A stretch of DNA of 28,150 nt from Candidatus Woesearchaeota archaeon (GTDB taxonomy: Archaea > Nanobdellota > Nanobdellia > Pacearchaeales > GW2011-AR1): assembly GCA_964638995.1 (NCBI GenBank), contig CAZXCF010000002.1, positions 1 to 28,150 on the forward strand, given 5' to 3'. The position numbers and the translations under genes were made by a program. Below the pieces are notes generated by a model. That model was not told where the DNA came from and did not search any database. It saw only the letters and a list, made by a program, of their open reading frames with translations. Shown piece after piece: positions 11,527 to 27,290 of this stretch (position 1 is the stretch's first letter; each line of letters begins with the position of its first letter).

Positions 11527-11840
11527 AAAATGGTAAAATATGTATATAAATTCACAGACTCTCATTTCACTCGGTCTAATCCGTCTTTCAGAGAAATCCG
11601 AATTAAATTAAAATTTGTAAATTCAAATATTATTTAAAATGGTAAAATATGTATATAAATTCACAAATGGAAAAAGAATCTCCTTTGAATTTGGAAATCT
11701 TTAATCCATTCGCAAATTTAAAATGGTAAAATATGTATATAAATTCACAAATGGAAAAAGAATCTCCTTTGAATTTGGAAATCTTTAATCCATTCGCAAA
11801 TTTAAAATGGTAAAATATGTATATCAATTCACAAATGGAA
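11527..11840 (+). repeat. Four copies of the 5' end of the 11807 gene: 30 bp at 11527-11556, then about 2.5 tandem 84-bp units at 11632-11840
   Basis: aaaatggtaaaatatgtatat(a/c)aattcaca recurs with ATG at 11530, 11639, 11723 and 11807. Units 11632-11715 and 11716-11799 are identical. Confidence 0.95.
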
Positions 11841-12334
11841 GGGAATTAACTAAAGCTGAATTTTTAAAATGGTTTCGAAAGAAATTTCTTTATGTTATTA
11901 GGAAATTTGGAATGATTGAAAAAGGCGATGTTTTAGGTTTTAGAAAAAAGAAAGATTTTAGGTCTGTAGTTCTTGAAGATCTTTTGGATTTTTTTGTTGA
12001 AAAAGCTCCCGTTAAGGTTGTTCGGTTGCCGAAAAAGTCAAATAAAATTGTTGAATCAACTACCTCTGATCAGGTTTCAGAAAAATTAACTCTGGAATTG
12101 TTTAAAGGAGATATTTCTAAACTTAAATTAAAGCCTGTTTCAGAAAATACAATTAGGCCTTTGTATTTATTTTTAGATAAAGAAATTTTATTATATGCTA
12201 AATTAAAAGGTTTAAAATTTAAAGAACCTAAATTTAAACAAAATAAAATAAGCAAATTTATAAGAAAACTAGAATCTAAACATTTGGAATTAAAACATTC
12301 AATTGTAAAAAGTTATTTAGAAATTTTTAATTAA
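11807..12334 (+). CDS. Degenerate TtcA/Ncs6(Ctu1)-like protein lacking the PP-loop and Cys motifs
   Basis: F.KWFRKK..YVIRKFGMIEKGD, IRPLYLFLDKEILLYAKLKGL and a KFIRKLESKH..LKHSIVKS tail resemble the family. The SGGKDS position reads RKKKDFRS, and the protein has no Cys. Confidence 0.62.
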   Translation: MVKYVYQFTNGRELTKAEFLKWFRKKFLYVIRKFGMIEKGDVLGFRKKKDFRSVVLEDLLDFFVEKAPVKVVRLPKKSNKIVESTTSDQVSEKLTLELFKGDISKLKLKPVSENTIRPLYLFLDKEILLYAKLKGLKFKEPKFKQNKISKFIRKLESKHLELKHSIVKSYLEIFN

Positions 12335-12364
12335 TTTGCTAATGTAGCTTTTATTTATCTTATA

Positions 12365-12380
12365 TAGCAAAATTTTGCTA
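12365..12380. terminator. Perfect 16-bp palindrome between convergent genes (possible bidirectional terminator or binding site)
   Basis: tagcaaaattttgcta is its own reverse complement. Confidence 0.4.
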
Positions 12381-12396
12381 GTAATACTTTAAGGAA

Positions 12397-14427
12397 TTAC
12401 TTTCTAGATTCTTCTATTTCTTTTTTGTCTAAATTGGAAACAAAATTATTTATGAATTTTTTTGTTTCTTCGTTATTATAATGTTTTATTTCTATAATAT
12501 GATAAACATCTTCTCGATCTTTATATTTTTCAGATTTTACTTGGTTTTTTATTTTGTCTTTGATTTCTTTTGAGTATACAACTTCCGATTCAGAATCTGA
12601 TGCCATTTTTTTAGCTTGCGTTATGAATGTTCCCATACTGGCAAATTTTATGGCGTTTTTTTCTGGCTTTATTATTGCTGTTCCATTGTTGATTGAAACT
12701 CCAAAATCTATTTTTTGTTTGAAAGTTTTATTATGTTTTTTGATTGTTTTCTTTATTGTTTGTGCTATTTCTAGTGCTGTTGATTCGTTTTTGAATGTCT
12801 TTGTTTTTAGGGGTATTAACATAAAAATGAGATTGTCATTATTTTGATGGGTCGATGCTTTTTGTTTTTCTGCATAATTAATTAATTTTTGAATTGTTTC
12901 TTTTGCGTTCCCTTCTGTTGATTCTATTTCTTTTAGGTTTTTTATGTTTAAACATACTGCACTCGATTTTTGTTTTGTTCCTTGAATAGATAAAGATAAT
13001 ATTGCAGGATTTTTTGATCTTAATTCATTGGATTTTATTGAGGATTTTTCTTTTGTTCTTTTTGAATGTTCTATTTTTTTCTTCTTTAGTATTTTAGGCA
13101 TATAGGCTAGAAAAGTTCTGTTTTGTCTTTTTTTGAAGGTAATATAAGTGAAAACTCCTAAAACTCCAAGTATAAATAACCAAGCAAGCGAGAATAATAA
13201 TTTGAAACCGGTTTTCTTTTCTTTTGCTGAAATAGTTCTTCCTGTTAGTACCGCTCTTTGTTTTATTTCGTTATCCTCCTCTTTAATACTTATTTGATAT
13301 TCTCCGTCTGGCGCCTTTAATTTGTATTCTTTAGTTTCATCTACGCCCAATTCAACATCAATAAAAATAGATTCATTTCCTATATTTATTTTTACCGAGT
13401 CATTGTAGGCTACATTTCCAGTATTTAAAATCGATACAGTATTATTTATTAAAGAAATATTTATATCGGATTTTTTTCCAATTAAAAAGTTTCTTTGAGT
13501 ATCTAGATCATTAGATTCTGCTTTTGCTGTCCATGTTAAAGGAGGTTCATTATATTTAATTGGAATTTCTAACTGTTCGTTTGTTTTTAATTCTCTTTTT
13601 TCAATTATCTTTGATCGATTATTTCTAACTTCTATTTCTACTTGTGAATCAATATTTTCACCTGTTTGATCGTGTAAAATCGCCTTTATTTTTCCTGTTT
13701 CTCCGGGAGTTATTTCTGGTTTAACTACAAGTTCTAGGCTTGTTGGAATTTGCTTTATTTTAATGAAATAATTTATAAATCCATTATTGGTTACTTCCTC
13801 TGATGAATCTTTTTCTTTAGCTTCTAATTTAACAACATATTTTCCAGCTTTCATGTTTTGAGGGAATGTTAGATTTATTGAATACTCTCCAGATGTAATT
13901 GTTCCAGTCTTTTGAATTGTTTTTGAAGAATTTTCTAGTTTTATTTCTAAATTAATTATTCCTTCTGCTGGTTCTTGATTTTCTTTTTTTGCTTTACCCT
14001 CAAACAGTATGTTTTGTCCAGGTTCAAAAAGAGATTCTTCTTTTTTTGGTTCGATTATTATTCTATCCGAAATTTTGAAATTATCAGTTGTTGCATAATC
14101 ATTTTCTAAGTGTGCTTTTATGAAGCAATTTCCTTTTGAAGATCCAATTAGAGATTTTGAAAGAACTAGCGAGGATTCTATTTTTTTTTCTTCACCTGCG
14201 GGAAGATTTACTCCATTTTTATAGAAATTAATTGTTTGGTTTTTGCAGATTAAATCTATTTGAAACACGTTTGTTATATCTTGGCTTGTTTTTATTGTAC
14301 TTGAAATGCTAATAGAATCTCCTAAACTATAATTTCCAGAAGGTTCGTTATTGAAGATTATTTCTGCATTTGCTAGAGGTAAGATTAGAAATACTAGTAT
14401 AAATAAGGGAATAGCTCTTTTCAACAT
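12397..14427 (-). CDS. Large single-pass surface protein: signal peptide, beta-rich Ig-like ectodomain, TM helix, cytoplasmic degenerate class III nucleotidyl cyclase-like domain
   Basis: Start moved to ATG 14427 (MLKRAIPLFILVFLILPLANA; TTTATAAA at -29..-22). TM LLFSLAWLFILGVLGVFTYITF. C-terminal FGVSINNG...MGTFITQAKKM...EVVYSKEI. The ORF is firm; domain calls are by eye. Confidence 0.75.
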   Translation of the reverse strand: MLKRAIPLFILVFLILPLANAEIIFNNEPSGNYSLGDSISISSTIKTSQDITNVFQIDLICKNQTINFYKNGVNLPAGEEKKIESSLVLSKSLIGSSKGNCFIKAHLENDYATTDNFKISDRIIIEPKKEESLFEPGQNILFEGKAKKENQEPAEGIINLEIKLENSSKTIQKTGTITSGEYSINLTFPQNMKAGKYVVKLEAKEKDSSEEVTNNGFINYFIKIKQIPTSLELVVKPEITPGETGKIKAILHDQTGENIDSQVEIEVRNNRSKIIEKRELKTNEQLEIPIKYNEPPLTWTAKAESNDLDTQRNFLIGKKSDINISLINNTVSILNTGNVAYNDSVKINIGNESIFIDVELGVDETKEYKLKAPDGEYQISIKEEDNEIKQRAVLTGRTISAKEKKTGFKLLFSLAWLFILGVLGVFTYITFKKRQNRTFLAYMPKILKKKKIEHSKRTKEKSSIKSNELRSKNPAILSLSIQGTKQKSSAVCLNIKNLKEIESTEGNAKETIQKLINYAEKQKASTHQNNDNLIFMLIPLKTKTFKNESTALEIAQTIKKTIKKHNKTFKQKIDFGVSINNGTAIIKPEKNAIKFASMGTFITQAKKMASDSESEVVYSKEIKDKIKNQVKSEKYKDREDVYHIIEIKHYNNEETKKFINNFVSNLDKKEIEESRK

Positions 14428-14496
14428 GTTAGAAATAATTATTCTATATTTATAAATATTGTTAAGGTTTAAAAATCTAGGTTCTTTTAATATTAA

Positions 14497-15609
14497 ATGG
14501 CGAAAAAATTGGTGTTTGATCCCTGGAAAGTGGAAGGAGATATAAATTATAAAAAATTGGTTAAACAATTTGGAATTTCCCCTATAAAAAATCTTCCAAC
14601 AGTATTTCAAGGAAATGTTTTATTTAGAAGAAATGTTGTTTTTGCGCATAGAGATATTGAAAGGATTTTGAATGCTGTCAAAAATAAAAAGCCTTTTGTA
14701 ATTATGACTGGTTTGATGCCCACCGGAAAATTTCATATTGGGCACATGCTCGTTGCACAGCAATTTGTTTTTTGGCAAAATCTTGGCGCTAAAATTTATA
14801 TTGCAGTTGCCGATTTAGAATCTTACAATGCTAGAGGTTTAAGTTTAGAAGAAGCTCGAAAAAATGCTTTGGAAGAGTATATTACAAATTATGTTGCTCT
14901 TGGTTTAGATTTAAAAAAAGCCGATATTTATTTTCAATCAGATAGAAGTAAAGAAGGGGAAAAGGCAAATGCATATTATAGGTTACAAAATTTGCTGTCT
15001 AAACACTCGACTTTTGCAGAATTTAAAGGAGTTTATGGCGAGATTACTCCTGGAAAAATGTTAAGTTCTTTATTACAAGCTTCTGACATGTTGCATCCTC
15101 AGTTAAAAGAGTTTGAAGGGAATTGTCCCGTTTTAGTTCCTGTTGGAATTGATCAGGATCCCCACTTAAGATTGGCAAGAGATATTTCTAAGAGAATTAA
15201 AAATCCCAAGTTTGTTCAGTTAAGTTCAACTTACCATACATTTATGCCTGGTTTAGGCGGTGGAAAAATGAGTTCATCTAATCCCAATTCTTATATCGCT
15301 TTAACAGATTCGCCTTCTGAAGTGAAGAAAAAAATTAATAAATATGCATTTTCAGGAGGGCAAAAAACTTTAGAAGAACATAAGAAAAAAGGTGGAAATC
15401 CTGATATTGATGTGAGTTTTCAATATTTGAAAATGTTTTTTGAAGAAGATGACAAAAAATTAGAAGAAATTGAGGAAAAATACAGAAAAGGTGAAATGTT
15501 AACAGGCGAGTTAAAGAAATATTGTATTGAGAAAATAAATAGTTTTTTAGAAAAACATCAGAAAAGAAGGGAAAAGGCTAAAAAGATGGTTGATAAGTTA
15601 TTCAAATGA
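14497..15609 (+). CDS. trpS: Tryptophanyl-tRNA synthetase, archaeal type
   Basis: PTGKFHIGH (HIGH), VPVGIDQDPH, GGKMSSS (KMSKS), KINKYAFSGG, GGNPDIDV. TTTAAAAA at -29..-22. Confidence 0.97.
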   Translation: MAKKLVFDPWKVEGDINYKKLVKQFGISPIKNLPTVFQGNVLFRRNVVFAHRDIERILNAVKNKKPFVIMTGLMPTGKFHIGHMLVAQQFVFWQNLGAKIYIAVADLESYNARGLSLEEARKNALEEYITNYVALGLDLKKADIYFQSDRSKEGEKANAYYRLQNLLSKHSTFAEFKGVYGEITPGKMLSSLLQASDMLHPQLKEFEGNCPVLVPVGIDQDPHLRLARDISKRIKNPKFVQLSSTYHTFMPGLGGGKMSSSNPNSYIALTDSPSEVKKKINKYAFSGGQKTLEEHKKKGGNPDIDVSFQYLKMFFEEDDKKLEEIEEKYRKGEMLTGELKKYCIEKINSFLEKHQKRREKAKKMVDKLFK

Positions 15610-15692
15610 AAACACTAAAATTTTCACCCAAGGCAAAAAGCAAGCTTTTAGTTGCTTTGCCAAACAAATGGAGGTTTTTGTCAAAACAATGA
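15606..15692 (+). other. Repeat-encoded coupled mini-ORF A, 28 aa (MKTLKFSPKAKSKLLVALPNKWRFLSKQ)
   Basis: ATG 15606 overlaps the trpS TGA; its own TGA (15690-15692) overlaps the thrS ATG 15689. 83-bp unit. Confidence 0.7.
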
Positions 15693-17389
15693 AAACACTA
15701 AATTTACATTGCGATTATATTAAATGGCAGGCTCTGAAGAAAGCTTTAAAGAGTTTGGAAGATTTGCCTGAAAAAGATCTCGAAGAAAAATATGTTAAAG
15801 ATTGTTTAGTTGTTTTGATTGCGGTTGAAAAGCTAGATTTAAATGTAAAAGAAGTTATTGAAGAATTTGTGGAAAGTATAAAGAATATCTCTAAGCAAGT
15901 TAATACAAAAAATATTGTTCTTTACCCTTATGCTCATTTATCTAAAAGATTGGGGAGTCCAGATTTGGCTCAAGAGATTTTGAAAAAATCTGAAAAGGCA
16001 CTGAAAAAAGAAAAGTTTAAAGTTTCTAGAGCTCCATTTGGATATTACAAGTCATTTGAAATAAAAGTTAAAGGGCATCCTTTGTCTGAATTATCAAGAG
16101 AGATTGTTGTTGGAGGAAATGAGGAAGAGGAAAAATTTGATCCTAAACAGTTATTAAGAGAGATTTCAAAATCAAAATTAGATTCTTCTAAATTGAAAGA
16201 TAACGATCATAGGATTCTAGGAAAGCAGATGGATTTATTTAGTTTTAATGAAGTTGCACCTGGAATGATTTTTTGGCATAATAATGGGGTAGTTGTTAGA
16301 AATGAACTGATTAAATTTATGAGGGAGTTAATGAAATCTAGAGGTTATGAAGAAGTTTTGACCCCTCAAATAATGGATAAAAAATTATGGCAAATTTCCG
16401 GACATTGGGACAAATATAAAGAAAACAATTTTTCAACCGAATATGAGGGGAGGCAGTTTTTGATTAAACCGATGAATTGTCCTGGAGGTTTACTGATTTA
16501 TAAGAATTCTCCAAAATCATATAAAGAACTTCCTTTGAAGTCAGGCGAATTCGGAATTGTTCATAGACAAGAATTATCAGGAGTTTTAGGAGGATTATTT
16601 AGAGTTATACAATTTACACAGGATGATGCCCATGTTTTTTGTACTGAAAAACAACTGGAGAAGGAAATTTCTAATATTATGGAGTTAGTAGATTATATTT
16701 ACACTAAATTTAATTTTGAATATAGCATTGAATTATCTACTCGTCCCGAAAAAAGAATAGGTTCTGACGAGATTTGGGATAAAGCAGAAAATGCTCTAAA
16801 AAAAGTTTTAGATAAGAGAAAAGTTAAGTATAAAATTAATAAAGGTGATGGAGCATTTTACGGGCCAAAGATCGATTTTCACTTGAAAGATTCTTTGAAG
16901 AGAACTTGGCAGTGTGGAACTATTCAGGTTGATTTTTCAATGCCGGAAAGATTTGAATTAGAATATACGGATAAAAACAATAAAAAGAAGCGTCCAATTA
17001 TGGTTCATAGAGCTATTTATGGCTCATTAGAAAGATTCTTGGGAATTTTATTGGAGCATACAAACGGCCGTTTACCTCCATGGTTATCTCCAATTCAAGT
17101 TAGGATTTTAAATTTTACAGATAGAAATCTTGATTATGCTGAAAAAGTGATTGAAAGATTAGGAGAAAAAATTCCGAATTTAAGGGTTGATGCAGATTTT
17201 TCTCAGACAACAGTTCAATCAAAAGTTAAAAATGCAGAGATGATGAAAATTCCTTATATTTTAGTTGTAGGAGATAAAGAGCAGGGCTCTAATTCGGTTT
17301 CTGTAAGAAAAGAAGGGAAAGTAAAAACAGAATCTGTTGACAATTTTATAACAAAACTTAAAAAAGAGATTGAAGACAGATTATCATGA
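15689..17389 (+). CDS. thrS: Threonyl-tRNA synthetase with an archaeal-type N-terminal editing domain and a bacterial-type catalytic core
   Basis: N-terminus MKTLNLHCDYI, YPYAHLS, APFGYYKSF, KGHPLSELSR. Core DHRILG, SGHWDKY, KPMNCPG, HRQELSG, FTQDDAH, GAFYGPKID, MVHRAIYGSLERF. The ORF-track extension to 15590 is repeat sequence. Confidence 0.96.
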   Translation: MKTLNLHCDYIKWQALKKALKSLEDLPEKDLEEKYVKDCLVVLIAVEKLDLNVKEVIEEFVESIKNISKQVNTKNIVLYPYAHLSKRLGSPDLAQEILKKSEKALKKEKFKVSRAPFGYYKSFEIKVKGHPLSELSREIVVGGNEEEEKFDPKQLLREISKSKLDSSKLKDNDHRILGKQMDLFSFNEVAPGMIFWHNNGVVVRNELIKFMRELMKSRGYEEVLTPQIMDKKLWQISGHWDKYKENNFSTEYEGRQFLIKPMNCPGGLLIYKNSPKSYKELPLKSGEFGIVHRQELSGVLGGLFRVIQFTQDDAHVFCTEKQLEKEISNIMELVDYIYTKFNFEYSIELSTRPEKRIGSDEIWDKAENALKKVLDKRKVKYKINKGDGAFYGPKIDFHLKDSLKRTWQCGTIQVDFSMPERFELEYTDKNNKKKRPIMVHRAIYGSLERFLGILLEHTNGRLPPWLSPIQVRILNFTDRNLDYAEKVIERLGEKIPNLRVDADFSQTTVQSKVKNAEMMKIPYILVVGDKEQGSNSVSVRKEGKVKTESVDNFITKLKKEIEDRLS

Positions 17390-17478
17390 ATTTTTCAAAA
17401 TTTCATTTTAGACAAAAAATTTCAAAGAAATTTTTAGTTGCTTTGTCAAACAAATGGAGGTTTTTGTCAAAACAATGA
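17386..17478 (+). other. Repeat-encoded coupled mini-ORF B, 30 aa (MNFSKFHFRQKISKKFLVALSNKWRFLSKQ)
   Basis: ATG 17386 overlaps the thrS TGA; its TGA (17476-17478) overlaps ATG 17475. It shares the 43-bp 3' core with A and C. Confidence 0.65.
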
Positions 17479-17561
17479 AAACACTAAAATTTTCACCGGA
17501 GGCAAAAAGCAAGCTTTTAGTTGCTTTGTCAAACAAATGGAGGTTTTTGTCAAAACAATGA
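17475..17561 (+). other. Repeat-encoded coupled mini-ORF C, 28 aa (MKTLKFSPEAKSKLLVALSNKWRFLSKQ)
   Basis: 83-bp unit differing from A at 3 positions; its TGA overlaps ATG 17558. Confidence 0.7.
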
Positions 17562-18061
17562 ACTTTCAATTTTATTTGGAAAAACTATTTGATTCGGAAG
17601 TGTTTAAAAAGTTCAAAGAAGAAAATAAAGATGCATATTTTTGTTCGGGTTTTTTTTCAATTGATAAAAAAGGAAAAGATAATAAAACAAATTTAGATTA
17701 CTATGTTCCCTCTACAAAAAAGTGGTTTAGTTTTCATTTGGATGGCGAGGTTAGTTTGAATAACTTAGAAAATTATGATGAAAGAGTCCCAGAAAAACTT
17801 TCTGATAATTTTGATTTTGATTTTAACGATGTTGAAAAAATTATTTTAGATAAAATCGAAAAAGAAAAGATAAATAAAAATATTGAAAAAATTTTGTTTT
17901 CTTTACAGAAATTAGATGGTAGAGATTATCTTGTATGCACTGTTTTTATTACAGGATTAGCTTTATTAAAAATAAATATTGCTTTAGAAAATAAAGAGAT
18001 TACAGATTTTGAAAAAAAGAGTTTTTTTGATATGTTAAAAATAATTAAAAAAGACAAATAA
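17558..18061 (+). CDS. Hypothetical protein (167 aa, MNFQFYLEKL...)
   Basis: Open frame of ordinary composition. The ORF-track extension to 17438 is repeat sequence. Confidence 0.8.
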   Translation: MNFQFYLEKLFDSEVFKKFKEENKDAYFCSGFFSIDKKGKDNKTNLDYYVPSTKKWFSFHLDGEVSLNNLENYDERVPEKLSDNFDFDFNDVEKIILDKIEKEKINKNIEKILFSLQKLDGRDYLVCTVFITGLALLKINIALENKEITDFEKKSFFDMLKIIKKDK

Positions 18062-18345: not shown

Positions 18346-18436
18346 ATTATTTTGTATTTTAAGTATTTTAAAAGAATTATTGTGATTTTTTTGAGGTATT
18401 CTTCTTTTATTTCTGAGTAATGAGAAATGATGAATG

Positions 18437-18621
18437 TTATTTTGGTTTTTTAGCAATAAAATTAATCATTGGTAAGAAAACAGCGTTTTCTTGAAACAAT
18501 CCATCTTTCCTTTGGCACTGAAGCAATCATCTAAAAAATCTCGATTGATGATAGTTTGGTTCAAGACTGATTAGTTTATTATGAAATATTATTTTGGTTT
18601 TTTAGCAATAAAATTAATCAT
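18437..18621 (-). repeat. Exact 33-bp duplication of the methyltransferase 3' end (18437-18469 and 18589-18621) flanking a 119-bp structured insert
   Basis: atgattaattttattgctaaaaaaccaaaataa occurs twice on the minus strand. The insert contains the perfect hairpin aagaaaac-agc-gttttctt (18474-18492). Confidence 0.93.
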
Positions 18622-19200
18622 CATTTCGGAGTTTTGAGTTTTGAATATTCTGAAACCCTCTCTTTCAAATTCTTGGTGGATTTCTTTTTCATCATACAAA
18701 TAATAATATCTTTTTCCTTTATCTGTCCATCCGATCATTAGTTCTTTTCCTTTTTTCTTTTTTCTTGAAAACCTTTTAGAATTTACATTCCATACTCCAA
18801 TGTAAGCTTTTGCCCCGGGTTTTAAAACTCTAAACATTTCTTTTATTGATTTTTCACGTTTTGATTTCCCTTTAACGCAATGTAGGGCGGAAATACATAT
18901 TAAAGCATCAAAAAAATTATTTCTGTAGGGAATATTAAAAAGTTGTCCTTGTTTTGTTTCAAGAGGAATTTTTTGCCCTTTTGCTTTTTTTTCAGCTAGG
19001 TTCAGCATTTCTTGAGAAAAATCTACTAAAAACATTTTTCCTTTAGAAATTTTCATTAAATGTCTGCCTGAACCTGATCCAAGGTCTAAAACATTTCCTT
19101 TTTGTTTTCTTAAAAATTCTTCAGTTCTTTGTGCAGGAATTTGTTTATGTTCGTGCCATTCTGAGGCAATCTTTTCCCATAGTTTTTGTTGATTTTCCAT
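18589..19200 (-). CDS. Class I SAM-dependent methyltransferase, Trm9/ALKBH8-like
   Basis: VLDLGSGSGRH, FDALICISALH, RVLKPG..YIGVW, late RYYYLY..E motif resembling Trm9 RYYHL. Divergent from elp3. Confidence 0.8.
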   Translation of the reverse strand: MENQQKLWEKIASEWHEHKQIPAQRTEEFLRKQKGNVLDLGSGSGRHLMKISKGKMFLVDFSQEMLNLAEKKAKGQKIPLETKQGQLFNIPYRNNFFDALICISALHCVKGKSKREKSIKEMFRVLKPGAKAYIGVWNVNSKRFSRKKKKGKELMIGWTDKGKRYYYLYDEKEIHQEFEREGFRIFKTQNSEMMINFIAKKPK

Positions 19201-19222
19201 TTTATGTGTTATTGTAAAAGAA

Positions 19223-19228: not shown

Positions 19229-19249
19229 CTTAAAAATTATCGGTTTATT

Positions 19250-20629
19250 ATGAAATCTCCAGAAAATAAAGAAATTCGTAAACCCACTAAAACAATTTCG
19301 GGAATTACTCCTGTGGCTATTATGTTACCTCCAAAAAAATGTAATCATGGGGCTTGTACCTATTGTCCAAATTTGAAAGTTCCTCAGAGTTATACCCCCA
19401 AATCTCCAGTTGTCATGAGGGCCTCTAAATTAGGTTATGATTCTTATAAGCAAGTTAAAGCTCGTTTGAAAGCATACGAAGCAATGAATCATCCCACAGA
19501 TAAAATTGAAATTATTATAATGGGGGGGACTTTTTTGGAATATTCAAATAATTTTCAGCATGAATTTATTAAAGGGATTTATGATGCTTTAAACTTTAAA
19601 AAATCTAAAAATTTAGAAAAAGCAAAGAAAATAAACGAAAATTCTAAACATAGGTGTGTCGCTTTATGTATTGAAACCCGTCCTGATAAATGTTTACAAT
19701 ACATTGAAAGAATGAGGGAGTTTGGATGTACAAGAGTTGAGCTTGGTGTTCAAATTATTGATGATAAAATTTATGAAAAAGTTTGTAGAGGACATACAAT
19801 TAAAGATGTCGTTAATGCAACAAAAGCATTGAAAGATGCAGGGTTTAAAGTAGGTTATCATATGATGCCTGGACTCCCAGGAAGTAATCCTAAATACGAT
19901 TTAAAGAAATTTAAAAAGATATTTTCTGATGAAAAATTTAAACCAGATCAATTGAAATTATATCCTTGCCAAGTTATGCCTGGAAGCGTTTTAGAAAAAG
20001 AGTATTGGAAAGGAAAATATGTCCCTTATTCAAAAGAAAAAATTGAAAAGGTTTTGATTAAAATGTTGAAATTAGTTCCAAGGTATTGTAGAGTAATGAG
20101 GGTTATGCGTGAAATTCCTCCTGAATATATTGTTGCCGGGACTAAGCATATAGATTTAAGAAAACATATTGAAGAAGAATTAAGAAAAAATAATTCTAAA
20201 ATTAATGAAATAAGATATAGGGAAATTGGATTTGCTTTAAGGGATAAGCGTGATATTAATCCGAATTTAAAATTGAAAATTACAAAATATAATGCTTCTA
20301 AAGGAAAAGAATATTTCTTAGAAATTGTTAATTCTAATGATGTTTTGTTTGGATTACTTAGATTAAGAATTTTTGGAAAGAAAAGAGAAGCGATTATTAG
20401 GGAACTCCATATTTATGGGCAGGCTTTGAAACTTGGAGAAAAAGGGAAAATTTCTCAGCATAAGGGTTTGGGTAAATGGTTAATGAACAAGGCAGGAGAA
20501 ATTGCTAAAAAACAAGATTGTAAGGAGATAAAGGTTATTTCAGGTGTTGGTGTAAGAGAGTATTATAGAAAATTGAATTATTCTTTGGAAGAAGGGAAAG
20601 GAGAGTATATGATTAAATGTTTGAAGTGA
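19250..20629 (+). CDS. elp3: Elp3 tRNA uridine(34) acetyltransferase (radical SAM + GNAT)
   Basis: KPTKTISGITPVA, CNHGACTYC, IMGGTF, ETRPD, TRVELGVQ, PDQLKLYP, RVMREIP, IRELHIYG, QHKGLG, ISGVGVREYYRKL. Confidence 0.96.
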   Translation: MKSPENKEIRKPTKTISGITPVAIMLPPKKCNHGACTYCPNLKVPQSYTPKSPVVMRASKLGYDSYKQVKARLKAYEAMNHPTDKIEIIIMGGTFLEYSNNFQHEFIKGIYDALNFKKSKNLEKAKKINENSKHRCVALCIETRPDKCLQYIERMREFGCTRVELGVQIIDDKIYEKVCRGHTIKDVVNATKALKDAGFKVGYHMMPGLPGSNPKYDLKKFKKIFSDEKFKPDQLKLYPCQVMPGSVLEKEYWKGKYVPYSKEKIEKVLIKMLKLVPRYCRVMRVMREIPPEYIVAGTKHIDLRKHIEEELRKNNSKINEIRYREIGFALRDKRDINPNLKLKITKYNASKGKEYFLEIVNSNDVLFGLLRLRIFGKKREAIIRELHIYGQALKLGEKGKISQHKGLGKWLMNKAGEIAKKQDCKEIKVISGVGVREYYRKLNYSLEEGKGEYMIKCLK

Positions 20630-20678
20630 CCTCTCAATTATAACAAATCTTTAAAATCAGAGTATTTTTGTTCTAAAA

Positions 20679-22421: not shown

Positions 22422-22451
22422 ATTTTTATAATTGTTTTTTCTTTCAAACTA

Positions 22452-22910
22452 ATGATAACAAAAAGAGGTTTTGGTTTTGGTGTAACTTCAGCAACAATCA
22501 CTACTTTAGGGGTTTTAGTTGGATTGTATTCTAGTACCGAGTCTAAATTAATTGTTTTGGCAGGAATTCTTTCAGTTATGATTGCAGACGCTTTTTCAGA
22601 TTCTTTTGGAATTCATGTTGCAGAAGAAAGTTTTCCAAAGAAAAAACAAAAAGCAGTTTGGAAAGAAACATTTTCTACGTTTGTTACAAAACTTATTTTT
22701 GCAGGAATTTTTCTTATCCCTCTTTTGATTCTTGAATTGAAACAAGCAATAATTACGGATTTATTTTTAGGGGGTATTATCCTATCTATTTATAGTTATA
22801 ATATTGCAAAAAAAAGAAAAGATAATCCTTTGAGAACAATTTGTGAACATTTGGGAATTGGAGTTATAGTTGTAGTAATAACTTATTTTGTAGGGAAATT
22901 ATTTGTGTAG
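22452..22910 (+). CDS. VIT1/CCC1-like membrane protein (putative Fe/Mn transporter)
   Basis: GFGVTSATITTLGVLVG...ADAFSDSFGIHVAEES; about 5 TM segments. Confidence 0.8.
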   Translation: MITKRGFGFGVTSATITTLGVLVGLYSSTESKLIVLAGILSVMIADAFSDSFGIHVAEESFPKKKQKAVWKETFSTFVTKLIFAGIFLIPLLILELKQAIITDLFLGGIILSIYSYNIAKKRKDNPLRTICEHLGIGVIVVVITYFVGKLFV

Positions 22911-22977
22911 TCTTTGAGAGGTTATAGCTTGAATTAAAGAAATTGCCATTGTTTCGTGTGCAAAATGTTTTGAAAAA

Positions 22978-23796
22978 TTAAATCTTAATTTTTCCTCTTT
23001 GCCAATCTTTTAATATAAATCTGGCCGTTTTATCTTCATCAACTAGCCCACCCCTTTTCATAAAACCTTTTCTTTTCCCTAATTTTTCTATTAAGATTTC
23101 TGAATCTCCTTTTGAATCTATTTTATATTGTTTTTCTAATGCATCAGGATGTTCTTTTATTATTTTATGGACAACTAGTTCAGGCTCTTTTATTTGTGAA
23201 TAAGATTTCCCCCCTAATTTTCCGAATTGGGCTATTTTTTCTTTTTTGTGTGTTGAATATTCTTTTTTTGGAATTACTCCTGGACTGTCTAACAGAATAA
23301 TTTTGTTTCCTAGTTTTAGTTTTTGGATTCCTCTAGTGAATCCTGCTTGTGCAGCTGTTCCAGCTGAAGCTTTTCCTATTAAGATGTTGATTAGAGAGCT
23401 TTTTCCAGTGTTTGGATAACCTATTACTCCTACATTTATTTTTTCTTTTGATTTTAGTATTGATTTTGACTCTCTTTTTATAAGGTCTCTTAATTTTTTT
23501 ATTCCTTTTCTTTGTTTACATGAAATTAGGGCTTGAGGGTTTAGATTGATATCCTTTTTTTTATAAATTAAATCAGATTTGTTTAAGGCATAGATTATTT
23601 TTTTATTTAATTTTTTTATTTGTTCTTCAATTTCAATATTTCTTGTTTCTTCTGGAAACCGGGCATCTAAAATTTCTAGAAGGATATCCGATTTTTTTAT
23701 TACGTCTTGAAGTATTTCAGTGTACTTTGGTTTTTGTTTACTTACATTTTTTAGTGCTTCTCGTTTTATCTTATGCGTCTTATTTGGGATTCTCAT
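22978..23796 (-). CDS. Circularly permuted ribosome-biogenesis GTPase (RbgA/YlqF family)
   Basis: LDARFP, G4 NKSD precedes G1 GYPNTGKSS, G2 GFT, G3 DSPG, and a C-terminal ARFILKDWQRGKI. TTTATAAA at -29..-22. Confidence 0.93.
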   Translation of the reverse strand: MRIPNKTHKIKREALKNVSKQKPKYTEILQDVIKKSDILLEILDARFPEETRNIEIEEQIKKLNKKIIYALNKSDLIYKKKDINLNPQALISCKQRKGIKKLRDLIKRESKSILKSKEKINVGVIGYPNTGKSSLINILIGKASAGTAAQAGFTRGIQKLKLGNKIILLDSPGVIPKKEYSTHKKEKIAQFGKLGGKSYSQIKEPELVVHKIIKEHPDALEKQYKIDSKGDSEILIEKLGKRKGFMKRGGLVDEDKTARFILKDWQRGKIKI

Positions 23797-23896
23797 GTTA
23801 AAAGTAATTTATTCTAGTTTATAAAGATAATAATTATAAAAAATGGATTTTTTCAAAATAAGGTATTTAAATCCTTGTAATTTTTTTGCGTAGTAA

Positions 23897-23911
23897 CGAA
23901 AGATTTATATA
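23897..23911 (+). promoter_or_regulatory. BRE-TATA promoter upstream of the GT4 gene
   Basis: cgaaag followed by tttatata, flanked by the inverted repeat gtagtaa/ttactac. Confidence 0.6.
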
Positions 23912-23964
23912 GTTTACCCGTTTTTTACTACCAAGGTTAAGAAATTTTTAATTAAATTTTATCT

Positions 23965-25269
23965 ATGGAAAAATGGATGAATCAATACATCGCGGAAATG
24001 AAAAAGAATTATCAGTCAAAACTACAAAAAGAAAAATTGAATATTCTTCAAATTGGAGCTTTAGGTTTGCCGGTAAGGAATGATTTAAAATATGCAGGTA
24101 CTGAAAGGGTTATAAGTTATCTCGATAAAGAGTTTGTAAGAAGAGGTCATAATTCTATGTTTGCAGGTCCAGGTGATTCTGAACTTGAAGGGAAACTATA
24201 CGCAACTATCCCAAAAAGCTTATGGGCTGTAAAAAAAGGAGAAGGAGGAAGAGATATTCAAGAAGGCACAGGCTCTTATTCTGAACACCATAGAAAAGTT
24301 ATAGATATTGTAAAAAATGTTGATGTAGATGTTCTCCATGATCATCCTGGAATGGAGATTGTTCATTCTCCAGAATATCTTTCTAGAAAAGATGAAATTA
24401 AAGATATTCCCATACTTACAACTCTTCATGGAAAATATTTTCCAGAAACAAAGGAAAATTTTGAGAAATTTAAGGAATTGATTAAAAGAGGATACCCCAT
24501 ACATTTTAATGCGATTAGTTATTCACAAAAAAAAGAATTTGAAGATAACACTGGAGTAGAAATAAAAAATGTAGTGTATCATGGAATTCCTTTAGAGATA
24601 TTTCCCTTTCAAGAGAAACCTCAAGATTATCTTTTTTCTTTAGGAAGGATATGTGAAGAAAAAGGGCAGCATATTGCAATTGAAACAGCAAAAAAGACTA
24701 AAAGACCACTTATAATTGCAGGAGAAGTACATTCAACAAATCAAAAATATTATGAAGAAAAAGTTAAACCTTCTTTAGATTTTTCAATTTATGATTTACC
24801 TGAAGATAAGAGAGAATCCTTTAAAAATGATTTTTTATCTAAAATAGATTCAAAAGAAGATATTATTAAAGAAGGTCAAATTTATTTTATAGGGAGTGTT
24901 GATGATAAACAAAAGTCAATAGGTTATAAGAATTCTTCGGCATTTTTAATGCCTATTACTTGGCCAGAACCTTTTGGATTGGTTATGGTAGAATCTATGG
25001 CTACGGGGACACCTGTAGTTGCTTTCAATTACGGGTCGGTTAAGGAAGTTGTAGACCATGGAAAAACAGGTTATGTTATTGATAAGTCTTCAATAAAGGG
25101 AAAAGACGGCGTACCCGATTTAGAAAAAATGGTTAATCAGATGTCTTATGCAGTGGATAGCCTATCCGATATAAAAAGAAAAACTTGTAGAAAGAGAATT
25201 AAAGATTTTTTTAGCATCGAGAAGGAAGCTGAAAATTATTTAAGATTATACGATGAAATTAGAAAATAA
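23965..25269 (+). CDS. Family 4 (GT-B) glycosyltransferase
   Basis: YAGTERVISYL, LHDH, TTLHG, VYHGIP, LGRICEEKG, WPEPFGLVMVESMATGTPVV. Confidence 0.92.
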   Translation: MEKWMNQYIAEMKKNYQSKLQKEKLNILQIGALGLPVRNDLKYAGTERVISYLDKEFVRRGHNSMFAGPGDSELEGKLYATIPKSLWAVKKGEGGRDIQEGTGSYSEHHRKVIDIVKNVDVDVLHDHPGMEIVHSPEYLSRKDEIKDIPILTTLHGKYFPETKENFEKFKELIKRGYPIHFNAISYSQKKEFEDNTGVEIKNVVYHGIPLEIFPFQEKPQDYLFSLGRICEEKGQHIAIETAKKTKRPLIIAGEVHSTNQKYYEEKVKPSLDFSIYDLPEDKRESFKNDFLSKIDSKEDIIKEGQIYFIGSVDDKQKSIGYKNSSAFLMPITWPEPFGLVMVESMATGTPVVAFNYGSVKEVVDHGKTGYVIDKSSIKGKDGVPDLEKMVNQMSYAVDSLSDIKRKTCRKRIKDFFSIEKEAENYLRLYDEIRK

Positions 25270-26362
25270 AAAATTCCTTCGGAAATTAAAATTTAGAAGG
25301 ATAAGAGATCTTGAACTTTATGTTGCGGGATTGCCAAATTTTCCAAGAAATTTTTCTAGGGACAGTATAATTTCTTCAATTTTGATGCAAGATTCTAATT
25401 CATTAAAAAACCAATTGATTTTTTGTGCAAAAACTCAAGGAGAAGAAAAAAATCCTCATACTGCAGAAGAAAAAGGAAAAATAATTCATGAATTTCCAGG
25501 GGCTGAATTAAGAAATCTTTCAACAAAATATAATGCTTCAGATACTACCGCTTTATTTTTAATAGGTCATGAAATTTATCAGAAGCTAACAGGAGACTCA
25601 AATTTAAAATCATCGCAAAAACGAAATATTGTTGAAGCTGTCCATTATATTGAAAGACATCTTGATAAGAGAGGGGCATTTATAGAAGATCCTAAATATT
25701 GCGGTGCCAAAAAGTTTGCTCTTAAAGTAACTTATTGGAAAGATTCAGAACTTGTGAATAGAGAAAAAGGAGAACCTCGCTACCCTTTGACTATTAATTT
25801 ATTACATTTACAAAATATGAGGGCAATGAAAAGTGCTTCTTTTTTACTTAAAGACAAAAAATATTTGAATCATTATAATAAAATGCTTGACTTTTTTAAT
25901 AAAAATTTATATGATGATAAAAAGAACCTTTTTTATTTAGGTATGGATAAATCTGGAAAAATAGAAAATAATTCTACCGATATGCTTCATTCTTTATTTT
26001 ATTTAGATAAGAAGGATTTATCAAAAAAGCAGTTAGACGCTATTTTAAAAAATTCTTTAGAATTAGAAACAAAAAAAGGATATAGGGCGATGGTTCCAAA
26101 TGAAAAAATTAATGATAAATATCATGTTGAGACAGTTTGGCCCTTTGAACAAGCGATTATTCATGCTGGAACAAAAAAATTTGAATTAGAAAGACCTCAA
26201 AAAATAACCCGGAGAGTGCTTAAATATATAAATAAATCTCCGTTTGAAATTTTACTACTAAATAAAAAAAGATATGCCTTCGGAGGTTGTAAAACGCAAT
26301 TATGGACTATTGCAGCAAAAGAATATTTTAATAAGAAATATGAAAAATGTGTTTTTCCTTGA
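25253..26362 (+). CDS. Amylo-alpha-1,6-glucosidase / glycogen-debranching-like (alpha/alpha)6 glycoside hydrolase
   Basis: AGLPNFPRNFSRDSII, EEKGKIIHE, YNASDTTALF, YWKDS, YHVETVWPFEQA. Overlaps the GT4 stop. Confidence 0.78.
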   Translation: MKLENKKFLRKLKFRRIRDLELYVAGLPNFPRNFSRDSIISSILMQDSNSLKNQLIFCAKTQGEEKNPHTAEEKGKIIHEFPGAELRNLSTKYNASDTTALFLIGHEIYQKLTGDSNLKSSQKRNIVEAVHYIERHLDKRGAFIEDPKYCGAKKFALKVTYWKDSELVNREKGEPRYPLTINLLHLQNMRAMKSASFLLKDKKYLNHYNKMLDFFNKNLYDDKKNLFYLGMDKSGKIENNSTDMLHSLFYLDKKDLSKKQLDAILKNSLELETKKGYRAMVPNEKINDKYHVETVWPFEQAIIHAGTKKFELERPQKITRRVLKYINKSPFEILLLNKKRYAFGGCKTQLWTIAAKEYFNKKYEKCVFP

Positions 26363-26369
26363 TTATTTT

Positions 26370-26618
26370 TTAAATAAATTTTCTACAAAAACAGGTATTA
26401 AAGATATTTTTATCCAAAAGAATTTCCCCTAAGGAGGGAAATTTTGAAGGTTCTAAATCCAGTTTTCTTCCCATAGTAATTTCAAAAGAATCTTTCTTTT
26501 CAACATAAATTTGATGAGTATATGAATCTTTAGAATACATTGGAGTTTTAATTTCTGGAATTTTTGCCTTGGACTTATCTACTACAGTCCCGATAGGTTT
26601 AGGTTTATAATTTTTCAT
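26370..26618 (-). CDS. Small hypothetical protein
   Basis: 82-aa ORF with an ATG start and AT-rich TATA-like boxes upstream; no motif recognised. Confidence 0.5.
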   Translation of the reverse strand: MKNYKPKPIGTVVDKSKAKIPEIKTPMYSKDSYTHQIYVEKKDSFEITMGRKLDLEPSKFPSLGEILLDKNIFNTCFCRKFI

Positions 26619-26730
26619 GTTAAATTAAGTTTTTAAATGTTTAAATAGTTTATTCTAGAAGTTTTCCATCGAAGGTAAGAAAGCATAGGAACGCCCCGAC
26701 CGAATTTTATTGAGGAGTTTTATAAGAAAT

Positions 26731-26910
26731 TTATTCTCCTGTTTTTATTTTTCCAGAAATCATTCCTTCTAATTTTGAAGGAGTTAAAATTCTTCTTTCA
26801 ACACCAATAGAAATTAAATATTGGTTTACTAGACTCATATTTTGTCCATAAAATGTTGGGGGAACAATATGGTCTTTTCTAATGTAAATCGTTTCTTCCC
26901 TTTCAGACAT
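26731..26910 (-). CDS. Small hypothetical protein (59 aa, MSEREETIYIRK...) inside the mini-island
   Basis: ATG 26910 overlaps the upstream stop (ATGTCTGA), suggesting coupling. Confidence 0.5.
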   Translation of the reverse strand: MSEREETIYIRKDHIVPPTFYGQNMSLVNQYLISIGVERRILTPSKLEGMISGKIKTGE

Positions 26911-27142
26911 ATGGCTTCCATTCCCAAAAGAGTGCATAATCCGTATTGGTTGGGGGGTTTGATTTTAGCCCTATTTGCCCATTTGATCCCTTCTCTCTCA
27001 AATAAACCTCCCATTGCAATTGATTATTAAAAATTTTAGCAATTGTTAAAGCTTCTTCATCAGTTACTTGGTTTGGCCTTCTTAATCCTTTAGAAACATC
27101 ATACCCAAAAGCAGAATATATCCTTTTTGTTTCTTCATTCAC
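26903..27142 (-). CDS. Small hypothetical protein (79 aa) inside the mini-island
   Basis: GTG start with TTTTAAAC about 21-28 nt upstream. Confidence 0.55.
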   Translation of the reverse strand: MNEETKRIYSAFGYDVSKGLRRPNQVTDEEALTIAKIFNNQLQWEVYLREKGSNGQIGLKSNPPTNTDYALFWEWKPYV

Positions 27143-27217
27143 AGAAAATTTAATTTTAGTTAGTTTAAAAGAATTATTGTGTTTGAGTTAAAAATCCAAA
27201 TCTTCTCTTCATGGGAA

Positions 27218-27290
27218 CGCCCCGACCGAGATTCGAACTCGGGTCACTGCCTTGAAAGGGCAGCATACTTGGCCTCTGTACTATCGGGGC
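27218..27290 (-). tRNA. tRNA-Glu(UUC), intronless, CCA not encoded
   Basis: Acceptor stem GCCCCGA/TCGGGGC, anticodon arm CTGCC-CTTTCAA-GGCAG, T arm CCGAG-TTCGAAT-CTCGG. Confidence 0.96.

Follow-up and report, generated by a model that had tools for sequence, protein, structure and literature searches.

How can the terminus of a gene come to be present twice, on either side of a short insert, with the gene itself still whole? The earlier note raised this question for four loci (L1-L4) in the 28,150-nt stretch of DNA analyzed here (the window), and at all four we confirmed the order terminus, short insert, terminus (A-B-A) next to an intact gene. The window belongs to G000, the genome of a DPANN archaeon (74% complete), which was compared with an independently assembled relative, G047 (87% complete). 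In this archaeon, which has a tiny genome, short gene-less hairpin modules are copied repeatedly into the ends of tRNA genes and protein genes, and each insertion event duplicates 14-64 nt of the target, leaving the gene whole. This is apparently a route of DNA insertion that has not been described before: we found no publication reporting a terminus-insert-terminus layout of hairpin modules, and no enzyme responsible for their insertion was found.

At L1, copies of the start of the gene at 11807 are located at positions 11527-11556, 11632-11672, 11716-11756 and 11800-11840 (spacings of 109, 84 and 84 nt). The first copy, AAAATGGTAAAATATGTATATAAATTCACA (+ strand), is an exact 30-nt repeat of 11636-11665, and the last (+ strand) is continuous with gene 11807-12334, which is intact (175 aa) and whose product matched no Pfam family. 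Insert 1 (11557-11623, - strand) is a reversed tE/R hairpin module detected with the covariance model R1 and an nhmmer R profile; among R1 matches in the window it ranks second (19.2 bits, E 0.049), and its R hairpin is paired. Positions 11606-11616 (+ strand) read as the reverse complement of 11657-11667 (10 of 11 matching), i.e., of an arm end plus the 2-3 nt just beyond it on the + strand, which in the orientation of the module are the first arm bases and the flank preceding them. The region 11632-11799 (+ strand) contains two identical 84-nt units, each composed of an arm and the 43-nt insert 2, although how many units there are is uncertain, since at 109 nt the exact repeat is longer than k=55. 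Insert 2 has 21 nt (95%) in common with the insert behind tRNA-Trp on contig C6.

The thrS gene is affected at both junctions (L2). Its start, AATGAAAACACTAAAWTT, is present at 15605-15622 and 15688-15705 (both + strand), flanking a 65-nt insert. The ATG of the first copy overlaps the trpS stop (ATGA), and the second is the working start (ATG at 15689); the N-terminus of related ThrRS proteins reads ATGAAAACACTAAAC. The insert (15623-15687, + strand) is module E+X, including the 43-nt X block at 15647-15689, and it recurs at 17492-17557 and at 20311-20392 on C1. At the 3' junction, the start of the next gene is present in a first, decayed copy (17386-17408, + strand) that overlaps the thrS stop (ATGA), and a composite insert (17409-17557, + strand) consists of E(ii), X, the thrS-start arm with E(i), and X; the 48-nt block X plus ATGAA is present twice, at 17432-17479 and 17515-17562. 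The next gene (17558-18061, + strand, 167 aa; no Pfam family found) is intact behind this insert, and in the relative L020 the thrS stop directly overlaps the ATG of its orthologue, with no spacer. A copy of the composite with 92% identity over 150 nt is located on the reverse strand of C1 (20311-20460), flanked by 55-nt arms.

At L3, the last 33-37 nt of a methyltransferase gene (18589-19200; Methyltransf_11/25) form its working end at 18585-18621 (- strand) and a spare downstream copy at 18433-18469 (- strand, 36 of 37 nt identical), flanking 115 nt. The insert core is the 102-nt module M (18470-18571, - strand), which has an 8-bp hairpin and is 98% identical to C16 1810-1911, a copy located at the 3' end of another gene between unrelated 58-nt arms. 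A 14-nt filler (18574-18587, + strand) is an exact copy of 19243-19256, 669 nt distant and upstream of the methyltransferase gene; by our own estimate, the chance of a 16-nt filler in the window is about 0.006. At L4, the 3' part of tRNA-Glu(UUC), itself intact (27218-27290, - strand; ARAGORN; 64 bits for Rfam tRNA), is found at 27210-27229 and, with 19 of 20 nt identical, at 26684-26703 (- strand), flanking 506 nt. This insert (26704-27209, - strand) has no tE core according to model R1 and no second copy in G000. It contains two small ORFs (79 and 68 aa), which we considered as viral cargo and rejected as such: they jointly match one conserved 133-aa gene of relatives and are a split copy of it. 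In one relative, that gene is located just after the RNA polymerase large-subunit gene (Rpb1 domains), with the S12/S7 genes further downstream. Next to the 5' end of tRNA-Glu lies a tE/R-like module in the opposite orientation (27300-27375, + strand), which gives the top R1 match in the window (29.4 bits, E 2e-4).

The inserts had been described as unrelated in sequence, but they belong to a few repeat families that recur on other contigs. These families (tE/R, E/X, M and H) comprise hairpin-rich modules of 35-240 nt without genes, and we tentatively propose that they were copied into new sites. The same insert is found between different arms (M on C2 versus C16, X-Y-X on C2 versus C1), the arms vary in length (14-64 nt, and 81 nt in one candidate event), and inserts are mosaics with 15-21-nt patches in common. 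Nested and tandem arrays occur as well, for example at C14 6279-6584 and on C45.

The genome-wide repeat scan suggested by the earlier note revealed direct repeats far above expectation: third-order Markov genomes gave 0-2 local repeats scoring ≥20 per 585 kb, and the low-GC contigs of G000 (562 kb) contain about 45 repeat clusters, 29 of which are not within a single ORF. The A-B-A layout occurs about 30 more times in G000 and is present again in G047. The density of clusters not confined to a single ORF is 5.2 per 100 kb in G000, 2.9 in the tE/R carrier G047 and 0.7 in G002, which has no tE/R match; the corresponding fractions of tRNA genes with a 3' duplication are 9/25, 4/14 and 0/14. About 25 tE/R copies were detected in G000 and 16 in one of 60 related genomes, so that two of 61 are carriers. 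Event sites adjoin highly expressed genes (tRNAs, S28e/L7Ae, ftsZ and aminoacyl-tRNA synthetases). Survival bias, mentioned previously as an alternative, explains most of the enrichment at protein-gene termini, where footprints accumulate because only events leaving a whole gene survive, but it does not explain the approximately 400-fold excess of duplications at tRNA 3' ends. Of the "one trans-acting mechanism" proposed, the single recurrent process, as opposed to four coincidences, is supported, and the activities named for it were not found; our best explanation takes L1-L4 as footprints of one lineage-specific process.

tRNA genes are the main insertion hotspot. In nine of the 25 tRNA genes of G000, a second copy of the 3' part follows a tE module; it mostly begins at C56 in the T loop, the arm start in seven of these nine script-detected cases. 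The junctions have a characteristic anatomy. Straight after arm 1, 2-3 nt of the flank and the first 7-10 nt of the arm reappear as an inverted patch. Of 17 such patches at tRNA loci, 15 correspond to the T loop of the tRNA concerned, with four T-loop variants represented (CAAAT, CGAAT, CAATT and TAGAT), and the same signature is present at C16 (12/13), at C45:2205 (10 nt, p 0.01) and in the L1 patch described above (L1a). In a blind test, most events lacked a significant nearby-templated patch. At the other boundary, CRAATCC follows tE and ATGAA follows X, with E/X arms starting exactly at ATGAA in three of three events.

What we observed directly is the A-B-A arrangement, a set of repeat families, a hotspot at the tRNA T loop and a second genome carrying the modules, and no recognized mobility enzyme was found; from this we infer that host replication or repair by template switching may have produced the duplications and inserts, a reading that falls somewhat short of probable. 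The junction details favor such host repair over an unseen transposase, the former being a serious candidate and the latter rather unlikely, because of the inverted patch taken from the target start, the nearby-templated filler and the CRAATCC/ATGAA boundaries. At the border of a gene with high transcription, a stalled fork or a break with widely staggered ends would turn the target into a 3' single-stranded tail. The tail would snap back and copy its own base, giving the 8-13-nt inverted patch of flank and arm start; synthesis would then jump to a hairpin module elsewhere in the genome and return to the original template at the microhomology that always follows the donor module (CRAATCC behind tE, ATGAA behind X), after which the target would be copied a second time. 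Recurrence far above chance, lineage specificity, the L3 filler, the mosaic inserts, the variable arms and the failure to find RT, Cas1, Y1, TnpB and native DDE genes in G000, or RT and DDE_Tnp_1 in G047, all point this way. Among the options of the earlier note, a repair quirk of the lineage fits the junction anatomy best. Against template switching, the fairly constant ends and covarying hairpin of tE suggest a defined element or a functional RNA more than random filler, a target-site preference satisfies the microhomology argument equally, and comparable template-switch insertions have been described mainly in eukaryotes.

The second reading, which we consider unlikely though not negligible, is that the four families are non-autonomous, MITE-like transposable elements, moved by an enzyme encoded outside the assembled bins that cuts the strands 14-64 nt apart, with fill-in generating the long duplication. 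Recurring defined ends, many copies, restriction to two genomes and identical modules between different arms agree with it, as does the incompleteness of both carriers; the mobilizing enzyme could be encoded by a virus, plasmid or host that was not binned. Being complementary to the T loop, the left end of tE could serve as a target guide, for which IS200/IS605 and IS110 elements offer precedent. Precedent for variable duplications (8-514 bp) comes from IS1634-family elements, which are common among Euryarchaeota (PMC2266710). However, the modules have no terminal inverted repeats. RVT_1, Cas1, Y1 and TnpB were not found in G000, no DDE transposase was found on its native contigs, and neither RVT_1 nor DDE_Tnp_1 (IS4-type) was found in G047. 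The sole DDE transposase of the G000 bin and its CRISPR array were rejected as native, being on contaminant contigs (GC 57-58%), of which the bin contains 11. The one integrase, of 369 aa and encoded directly behind tRNA-Asp on C14, lacks a good homologue in G047 and does not co-occur with the tE/R module. Moreover, two 98%-identical M copies carry 16-19 nt of unshared filler at one end, the patches include flank bases of arm 1 and therefore look templated at each site rather than inherited, and the composite insert brings along an earlier target duplication (the thrS arm within X-Y-X).

Less likely still is a functional role, in which the modules would act as RNA or DNA structures belonging to tRNA and mRNA genes (3' trailers, terminators or processing signals, for example); gene conversion and local tandem duplication would have spread them, and the duplicated termini would be maintained or tolerated as parts of the structure. 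In favor of this, the 17-bp tE hairpin shows compensatory changes (six pairs covary), its G-U pairs are confined to the tRNA-sense strand, structure prediction gives three-way junctions at C6 and C28 that patch and duplicate close, hairpins with T-run tails resemble terminators, and the mini-ORFs inserted around thrS (units of 83, 89 and 83 nt) retain a chain of ATGA stop/start overlaps. Yet the same tE/R model found no match in 59 of 60 relatives having the same tRNAs, duplicates continue into the acceptor stem and trailer, far past every predicted helix, many of them are decaying (tRNA-Trp, tRNA-Ile of G047, the thrS 3' arm), fold z-scores are weak in most module copies, and modules are found in both orientations and at protein-gene ends.

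That the tRNA-linked duplications, above all L4, are attL/attR scars of tyrosine-integrase elements decayed to small remnants is improbable. The repeats span the tRNA 3' part from the T loop on, the classical att location, an integrase adjoins tRNA-Asp, and the L4 insert is the longest and has coding sequence; but that sequence is the split conserved gene, the integrase has no good counterpart in G047, one 70-100-nt module stands behind at least 12 different tRNAs, each with its own duplicated end, the arms include variable lengths of trailer, and tRNA 5' ends as well as the starts and stops of protein genes show this layout too.

Contig terminal repeats never exceed 55 nt, so the final k was probably 55, and the exact repeats at the window loci, except the L1 tandem, are shorter and must therefore lie within reads. 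Assembly artefacts of a low-coverage metagenome bin are thus very improbable, despite a depth of only about 6-7x, one arm-100N-arm scaffold join (C11 9221/9374, a scaffolding overlap), arms cut at contig ends on C10, C54 and C63 and the contaminant contigs, since several arm pairs differ by point mutations, a Logan contig from an independent assembler spans all of L4 (at the other loci Logan's contigs, built with k=31, are interrupted, as repeats would lead one to expect) and G047 has the same anatomy, which leaves only the L1 84-nt copy number uncertain.

Among known systems, MITEs, REP/BIME, Correia, RUP and RPE are small, non-coding, hairpin-forming, multi-copy intergenic repeats that can supply promoters or terminators, and they resemble our modules in size, hairpin, copy number and intergenic position. 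MITEs, however, end in inverted sequences and come with duplications of short, fixed length (2-10 bp), REPs come with none, and we know of no MITE or small intergenic repeat with a 14-64 nt duplication or a target-complementary patch. SINE/LINE target-primed reverse transcription shares variable target duplications and one precise and one ragged end with filler, as in module M, but no reverse transcriptase was found in G000 or G047 and the modules have no A-rich tail. Integration into tRNA genes is exemplified by SSV- and pNOB8-type integrases. The direct repeat flanking such elements starts within the tRNA, in its T or anticodon loop, and extends to the 3' end, and the tRNA remains functional (PMC2853133); the elements require an integrase and an attP identical to one tRNA and form kilobase inserts, whereas here one short module serves many tRNAs and protein-gene termini. 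IS1634/IS1549 elements also generate long, variable direct repeats, for which there is no mechanistic model (PMC2266710), and Mycoplasma IS1630 generates repeats of 19-26 bp (PMC2853133), but these elements are 1.5-2 kb long with terminal repeats and a large DDE transposase, a gene not found on the native contigs or in G047. According to PMC8421209 and PMC11724301, MMBIR/FoSTeS, foldback inverted insertions and polymerase-theta end joining leave short patches copied from nearby (direct or inverted), mosaics, microhomology junctions and flank duplications, all in common with our modules; such insertions were described as one-off scars in yeast, animal and cancer genomes, whereas the events in our archaeon recur at defined gene features and draw preferentially on a specific repeat family as template. 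Bacterial restriction-modification units, finally, are found inserted with a unique target sequence of about 26-65 bp directly duplicated on either side; their mechanism has not been established, but double-strand breaks are suspected to take part (Furuta, Abe and Kobayashi 2010, PMC2853133). They share with our modules the variable duplication length, the absence of a transposase or integrase from the insert and targets that often overlap gene 3' ends. Those insertions are rare bacterial events with kilobase-sized gene cargo, whereas the modules described here are non-coding hairpin repeats of a DPANN archaeon, present in dozens of copies and with a hotspot at the tRNA T loop.

The four loci at which the earlier note reported a duplicated gene terminus on both sides of a short insert are all present in the window as it described them, and every gene involved is intact. 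We refer to the duplicated terminus as an arm, and to the layout of arm, insert and arm as A-B-A. At the first locus (L1), the first 30-41 nt of the gene at 11807-12334, together with 7 nt upstream of it, are present four times. At the 5' junction of thrS, 17-18 nt of the start of the gene are present twice with 65 nt in between; at its 3' junction a 48-nt block is present twice, and the thrS stop is still overlapped by a decayed copy of the start of the next gene. At the third locus (L3), 115 nt are flanked by the last 33-37 nt of the methyltransferase gene, and at the fourth (L4), 506 nt are flanked by the last 16-20 nt of tRNA-Glu. Such structures are far more common than expected by chance: 45 clusters of local repeats with a score of at least 20 were found in the low-GC contigs of the bin, versus 0-2 per 585 kb in Markov-simulated genomes. 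The arms are found only locally, their targets being single-copy elsewhere, and vary between 14 and 64 nt within one family (one candidate event has 81 nt). The inserts are non-coding and 35-240 nt long.

In the region around thrS (15606-17561), five ATGA stop/start overlaps chain trpS, a mini-ORF of 28 codons, thrS, two more mini-ORFs and the next gene. The units inserted here are 83, 89 and 83 nt long, all of length 3n-1, and in combination with the ATGA chain this means that the insertions seem to have been filtered to retain translational coupling. The thrS genes of relatives have their own TTTTATAAA box. One relative, with a ThrRS of only 69% identity, has no spacer behind thrS: the stop codon and the ATG of the orthologous gene that follows share the sequence ATGA, which is the state expected at the 3' junction before insertion. 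An exact look-up of the methyltransferase found no empty site of the same species, and a metagenome scan with ThrRS found no relative above ~80% identity. In nine related genomes (G001, G009, G025, G029, G031, G035, G036, G038 and G040) ThrRS was detected as two separate matches, one to the N-terminal editing domain and one to the catalytic core, which suggests a split or two-gene ThrRS in part of the order.

The earlier note regarded the inserts as unrelated in sequence. This proved to be wrong, as those of L1, L2 (the thrS junctions) and L3 recur or share sequence across the genome. The 102-nt core of the L3 insert is 98% identical to contig C16 1810-1911, where it lies at the 3' terminus of a different gene, between unrelated arms of 58 nt. 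The composite thrS insert, of the form X-Y-X, is 92% identical to C1 20311-20460, which lies between 55-nt arms. The first L1 insert is a copy, in reverse orientation, of a module that we named tE/R, and the second has 21 nt in common with the insert that follows tRNA-Trp. The inserts have a mosaic structure; for instance, a 15-nt exact patch is common to an insert on C45 and the thrS unit. The tE/R module consists of a 17-bp hairpin followed by a second hairpin or by a hairpin and a T run, and a covariance model detected 25 copies in this genome. Another hairpin module, M, was tried as a member of the R family and rejected (3.7 bits, not significant), and there are therefore several insert families. 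Readings of the inserts as C/D-box sRNAs or as bulge-helix-bulge introns were also rejected, because of unsuitable box spacing and unsuitable splice-site pairing, respectively, both judged by eye only. Elsewhere in the bin, the 3' end of the ribosomal protein S28e gene, which adjoins L7Ae, is duplicated over 19-22 nt on either side of three R units in tandem (C12:12320-12547), and a 43-nt duplication is present immediately upstream of ftsZ on C5.

The tRNA genes are the prominent targets. The tE module is found behind at least 12 different tRNA genes, each with its own duplicated end. Of 25 tRNAs, 9 have their 3' part repeated downstream, as does the tRNA-Asn of C24, at a distance of 66-160 nt (tRNA-Glu, 526 nt). 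In seven cases the repeat starts exactly at GGTT|CRAATCC, corresponding to C56, and extends into the trailer to a variable degree. For tRNA-Leu and tRNA-Lys, a second copy of the first 23-28 nt lies 77-97 nt upstream, with a short insert between the copies (C22:459-578 and C28:6853-6957), and hence tRNA 5' ends are affected in addition to 3' ends. Nested and tandem series are present as well. Behind tRNA-Ser(GGA), at C14:6279-6584, five partial copies of the 3' end with different inserts between them form a nested series of duplication events. Long tRNA introns also occur in this genome: 148 nt in tRNA-Asn (C24:623-843), 104 nt in tRNA-Glu(CUC) (C4:620-796) and 57 nt in tRNA-His (C1:5893-6022).

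Among 34 curated events, tRNA 3' ends account for 11, stop codons for about 8 and start codons for about 7, and no event is clearly intragenic. An interval of 35 nt placed at random would fall at these positions in 0.08%, 3.6% and 3.8% of cases, respectively, and inside a gene in 79%. The excess at tRNA 3' ends is ~400-fold relative to the genome and ~80-fold relative to non-coding DNA. Enrichment at starts and stops, which the earlier note had proposed to check, does exist, but among the sites whose use breaks no gene protein termini are only mildly over-represented, and their enrichment is therefore mostly explained by survival bias. The alternative that harmless sites merely survive accordingly covers most of the enrichment at protein termini and not the excess at tRNA 3' ends.

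The junctions have a recognizable anatomy. The first arm copy is often directly followed by a patch that repeats, in inverted orientation, 2-3 nt of the upstream flank together with the first 7-10 nt of the arm. In the case of tRNA genes the patch reads GGATTYGAA and is complementary to the T loop. In 15 of 17 cases from two genomes it agrees with the T-loop variant found locally (CAAAT, CGAAT, CAATT or TAGAT); by our own estimate, the probability of such agreement by chance is about 2e-5. The patch holds the complement of T54-T55, bases that precede only the first copy, and it therefore fits the intact tRNA and not the junction of the duplicate. An inverted patch is also present at C16 (12/13), at C45:2205 (10 nt, p 0.01) and at L1a (10/11), and the L3 filler copies 14 nt from a site at a distance of 669 nt. 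A blind search for patches templated nearby, covering both ends of 27 events, found only a minority to be significant. At the right end of each module, the second arm follows with no filler in between. One end of module M is exact (…TTACCA beside the arm); at the other, its copies have 16-19 nt of filler that they do not share. In the three events of the E/X family the arms start exactly at ATGAA, a sequence that is always found behind X.

The 506-nt insert at tRNA-Glu may be a separate case. It lacks the tE core, and between the tRNA-Glu repeats (26734-27142, minus strand) it contains ORFs of 79 and 68 aa that jointly match one hypothetical protein of 133 aa in a relative. Judged from this match, a conserved gene looks to have been split in this genome. 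The gene of the relative is located directly after the gene encoding the RNA polymerase large subunit (Rpb1 domains), with the S12 and S7 ribosomal protein genes further downstream. The ORFs matched no Pfam family, and their homologues are chromosomal hypothetical genes.

In the survey of related genomes that the earlier note had suggested, the covariance model detected tE/R in one of 60, G047, which belongs to the same family and another genus. The A-B-A layout recurs in G047 at tRNA-Gly, Ala, Ile and Asn, at the 5' ends of two tRNA-Ser genes and, with 37-nt arms, at the start of a protein gene. Analyzed with one pipeline, the density of clusters not contained within one ORF is 5.2 per 100 kb in this genome, versus 2.9 in G047 and 0.7 in G002, a relative without a tE/R match; tRNA 3' duplications were found in 9/25, 4/14 and 0/14 tRNAs, respectively. 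The thrS neighbourhoods of relatives contain 2.2 clusters per 100 kb, versus 8.0 here. A pattern scan for tE over 185,579 species genomes gave, among the matches listed, mostly unrelated bacteria, and these matches are therefore mostly due to chance; the archaeal matches listed were not significant when re-scored with the model.

Beyond the existence of the structure itself, all steps are ones that we infer. As a possible explanation, we tentatively favour template switching at the borders of highly transcribed genes, either while they are replicated or while a break is repaired. A 3' tail holding the target would snap back, giving rise to the patch, and would next copy a hairpin module from another module copy; synthesis would then rejoin the original at a microhomology upstream of the departure point. 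Due to this upstream return, the target would be copied twice. The boundaries at CRAATCC and ATGAA fit microhomology at the switch point, and a target preference predicts the same boundaries, with no donor-recipient pair being certain.

The main rival, which we consider rather unlikely, is a non-autonomous element mobilised in trans by an unseen enzyme with widely staggered cleavage. IS1634/IS1549, which generate repeats of 8-514 bp, are a precedent (PMC2266710). The earlier note had proposed an integrase-, Cas1/casposase- or RT-like activity encoded elsewhere, and the searches for such genes speak against it. No RVT_1, Cas1 (PF01867), Y1 or TnpB-type gene was found in this genome (74% complete), and neither RVT_1 nor DDE_Tnp_1 in the incomplete genome G047. 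No native DDE gene was found in our likewise incomplete genome, where the sole PF01609 match is on a contaminant contig with a GC content of 57%. Eleven small contigs (C48, C50, C51, C60, C61, C64, C67-C69, C71 and C72) have a GC content of 0.42-0.65 in a bin of 29% GC, and these contigs, all above 0.40, are probably mis-binned contaminants. C67 encodes a DDE transposase of 576 aa, the only one in the bin, and C68 carries a CRISPR array with the repeat GTCGCTCCCTTCGCGGGGAGCGTGGATTGAAAC; both were set aside as contamination (GC 57-58%). A C25 gene flanked by R copies was considered as a RAYT-like candidate, but it occurs in 60 of 61 genomes and, as a core gene, was rejected.

Less likely is that the loci are decayed scars of an integrase. 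The genome encodes two tyrosine recombinases. The first is probably Xer-like, as it resembles the short recombinase of most relatives. The second is an integrase adjoining tRNA-Asp on C14, which is without duplication; it has homologues in several relatives and no good one in G047. It was rejected as the mobiliser because it does not co-occur with tE/R. That the modules are maintained RNA structures is also less likely. In favour of this reading, the alignment of seven copies has six covarying pairs in the 17-bp hairpin, with G-U pairs on one strand only. An Rfam search of the modules matched tRNA and no other family.

Assembly artefacts are likewise a less likely explanation of the window loci, and genuine ones do exist in this bin, namely an arm-100N-arm structure on C11 and arms cut by contig ends on C10, C54 and C63. 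At C11:9221-9426, 100 N stand exactly between two identical 53-nt ends, and this is a scaffold join of overlapping contigs and not a biological duplication. The window is the entire contig C2 of a 585-kb bin of 72 contigs (74% complete, ~29% GC), whose gene content is archaeal and which, from its size and its genes, we read as a DPANN-type archaeon. The final assembly probably used k = 55, since terminal repeats of contigs are at most 55 nt long, three being exactly 55 nt, and gaps are 10 or 100 N. All exact repeats at the window loci are shorter than 55 nt, except for the L1 tandem, and must therefore sit within reads; the copy number of the 84-nt tandem at L1 is not secure. The arms of several pairs differ by point differences, L4 is spanned end to end by independent Logan contigs, which are ~6-7x deep and broken at repeats, and the A-B-A anatomy is also present in the separate assembly of G047. 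In one Logan contig, 40 different letters stand for 500 nt (12527-13028) of the surface-protein gene at 12397-14427, which is a population length variant of this gene.

It is doubtful, though conceivable, that these loci reflect an undescribed type of DNA movement in DPANN archaea, self-propagating and enzyme-poor, in which small hairpin modules would use breaks with a wide stagger to insert at the termini of tRNA and protein genes, restore the terminus through a duplication of 14-64 nt and gain, at each event, a short segment that is complementary to the target (the T loop, for example); it would be a possible source of tRNA introns at odd positions, split tRNA genes and new leaders and trailers. 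If true, very small genomes that are poor in transposases would have a further way of reshaping their gene boundaries, promoters, terminators and translational coupling with all essential genes retained. The T-loop hotspot, together with a patch matching each tRNA's own T loop, offers a concrete handle on how DPANN tRNA genes gain inserts, introns and fragments. The duplications also yield decoy starts and spare gene ends, a source of error for gene calling and tRNA detection in these MAGs.

Compared with DDE transposons and MITEs, whose hallmarks are terminal inverted repeats and a target duplication that is short and constant in length, tE, M and E/X have ends that are not mutually inverted, the duplications span 14-64 nt (81 nt in one candidate), and a cognate transposase was found neither on the native contigs nor in G047, both genomes being incomplete. 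Long variable direct repeats are shared with the IS1634 family (8-514 bp; PMC2266710), whose members, however, are 1.5-2 kb long and encode an IS1634-type transposase, whereas the inserts here are 35-240 nt and non-coding, with no native DDE gene found. A direct repeat over the tRNA 3' part (9/25 tRNAs and the C24 tRNA-Asn) is reminiscent of tyrosine-integrase elements; in those, one element uses one tRNA and attP equals attB, whereas here one module lies behind at least 12 tRNAs, the inserts are gene-less and the only integrase sits at the unduplicated tRNA-Asp. Cas1-dependent integration and casposons produce a fixed duplication, repeat-sized or of 14-15 bp, unlike the variable 14-64 nt seen here; Cas1 (PF01867) was not found, and the C68 array has GC-rich repeats on a contig of 58% GC. 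Target-primed reverse transcription is similar in its variable target duplication and in one ragged junction (module M), but no RVT_1 was found in this genome or G047. Template-switch or foldback insertions are resembled by the patches copied from nearby, some of them inverted (the T loop in 15/17 cases, C16, C45:2205, L1a and the L3 filler); most other events were non-significant in the blind test for nearby templates. Finally, insertion of restriction-modification units also places an insert within a direct duplication, of at least ~20-30 bp, of an otherwise single-copy target, and double-strand breaks are suspected in that case (PMC2853133). The events described here carry no restriction-modification cargo, and differ from it in their short non-coding hairpins, their frequency, their host and the T-loop hotspot with its matching patch.
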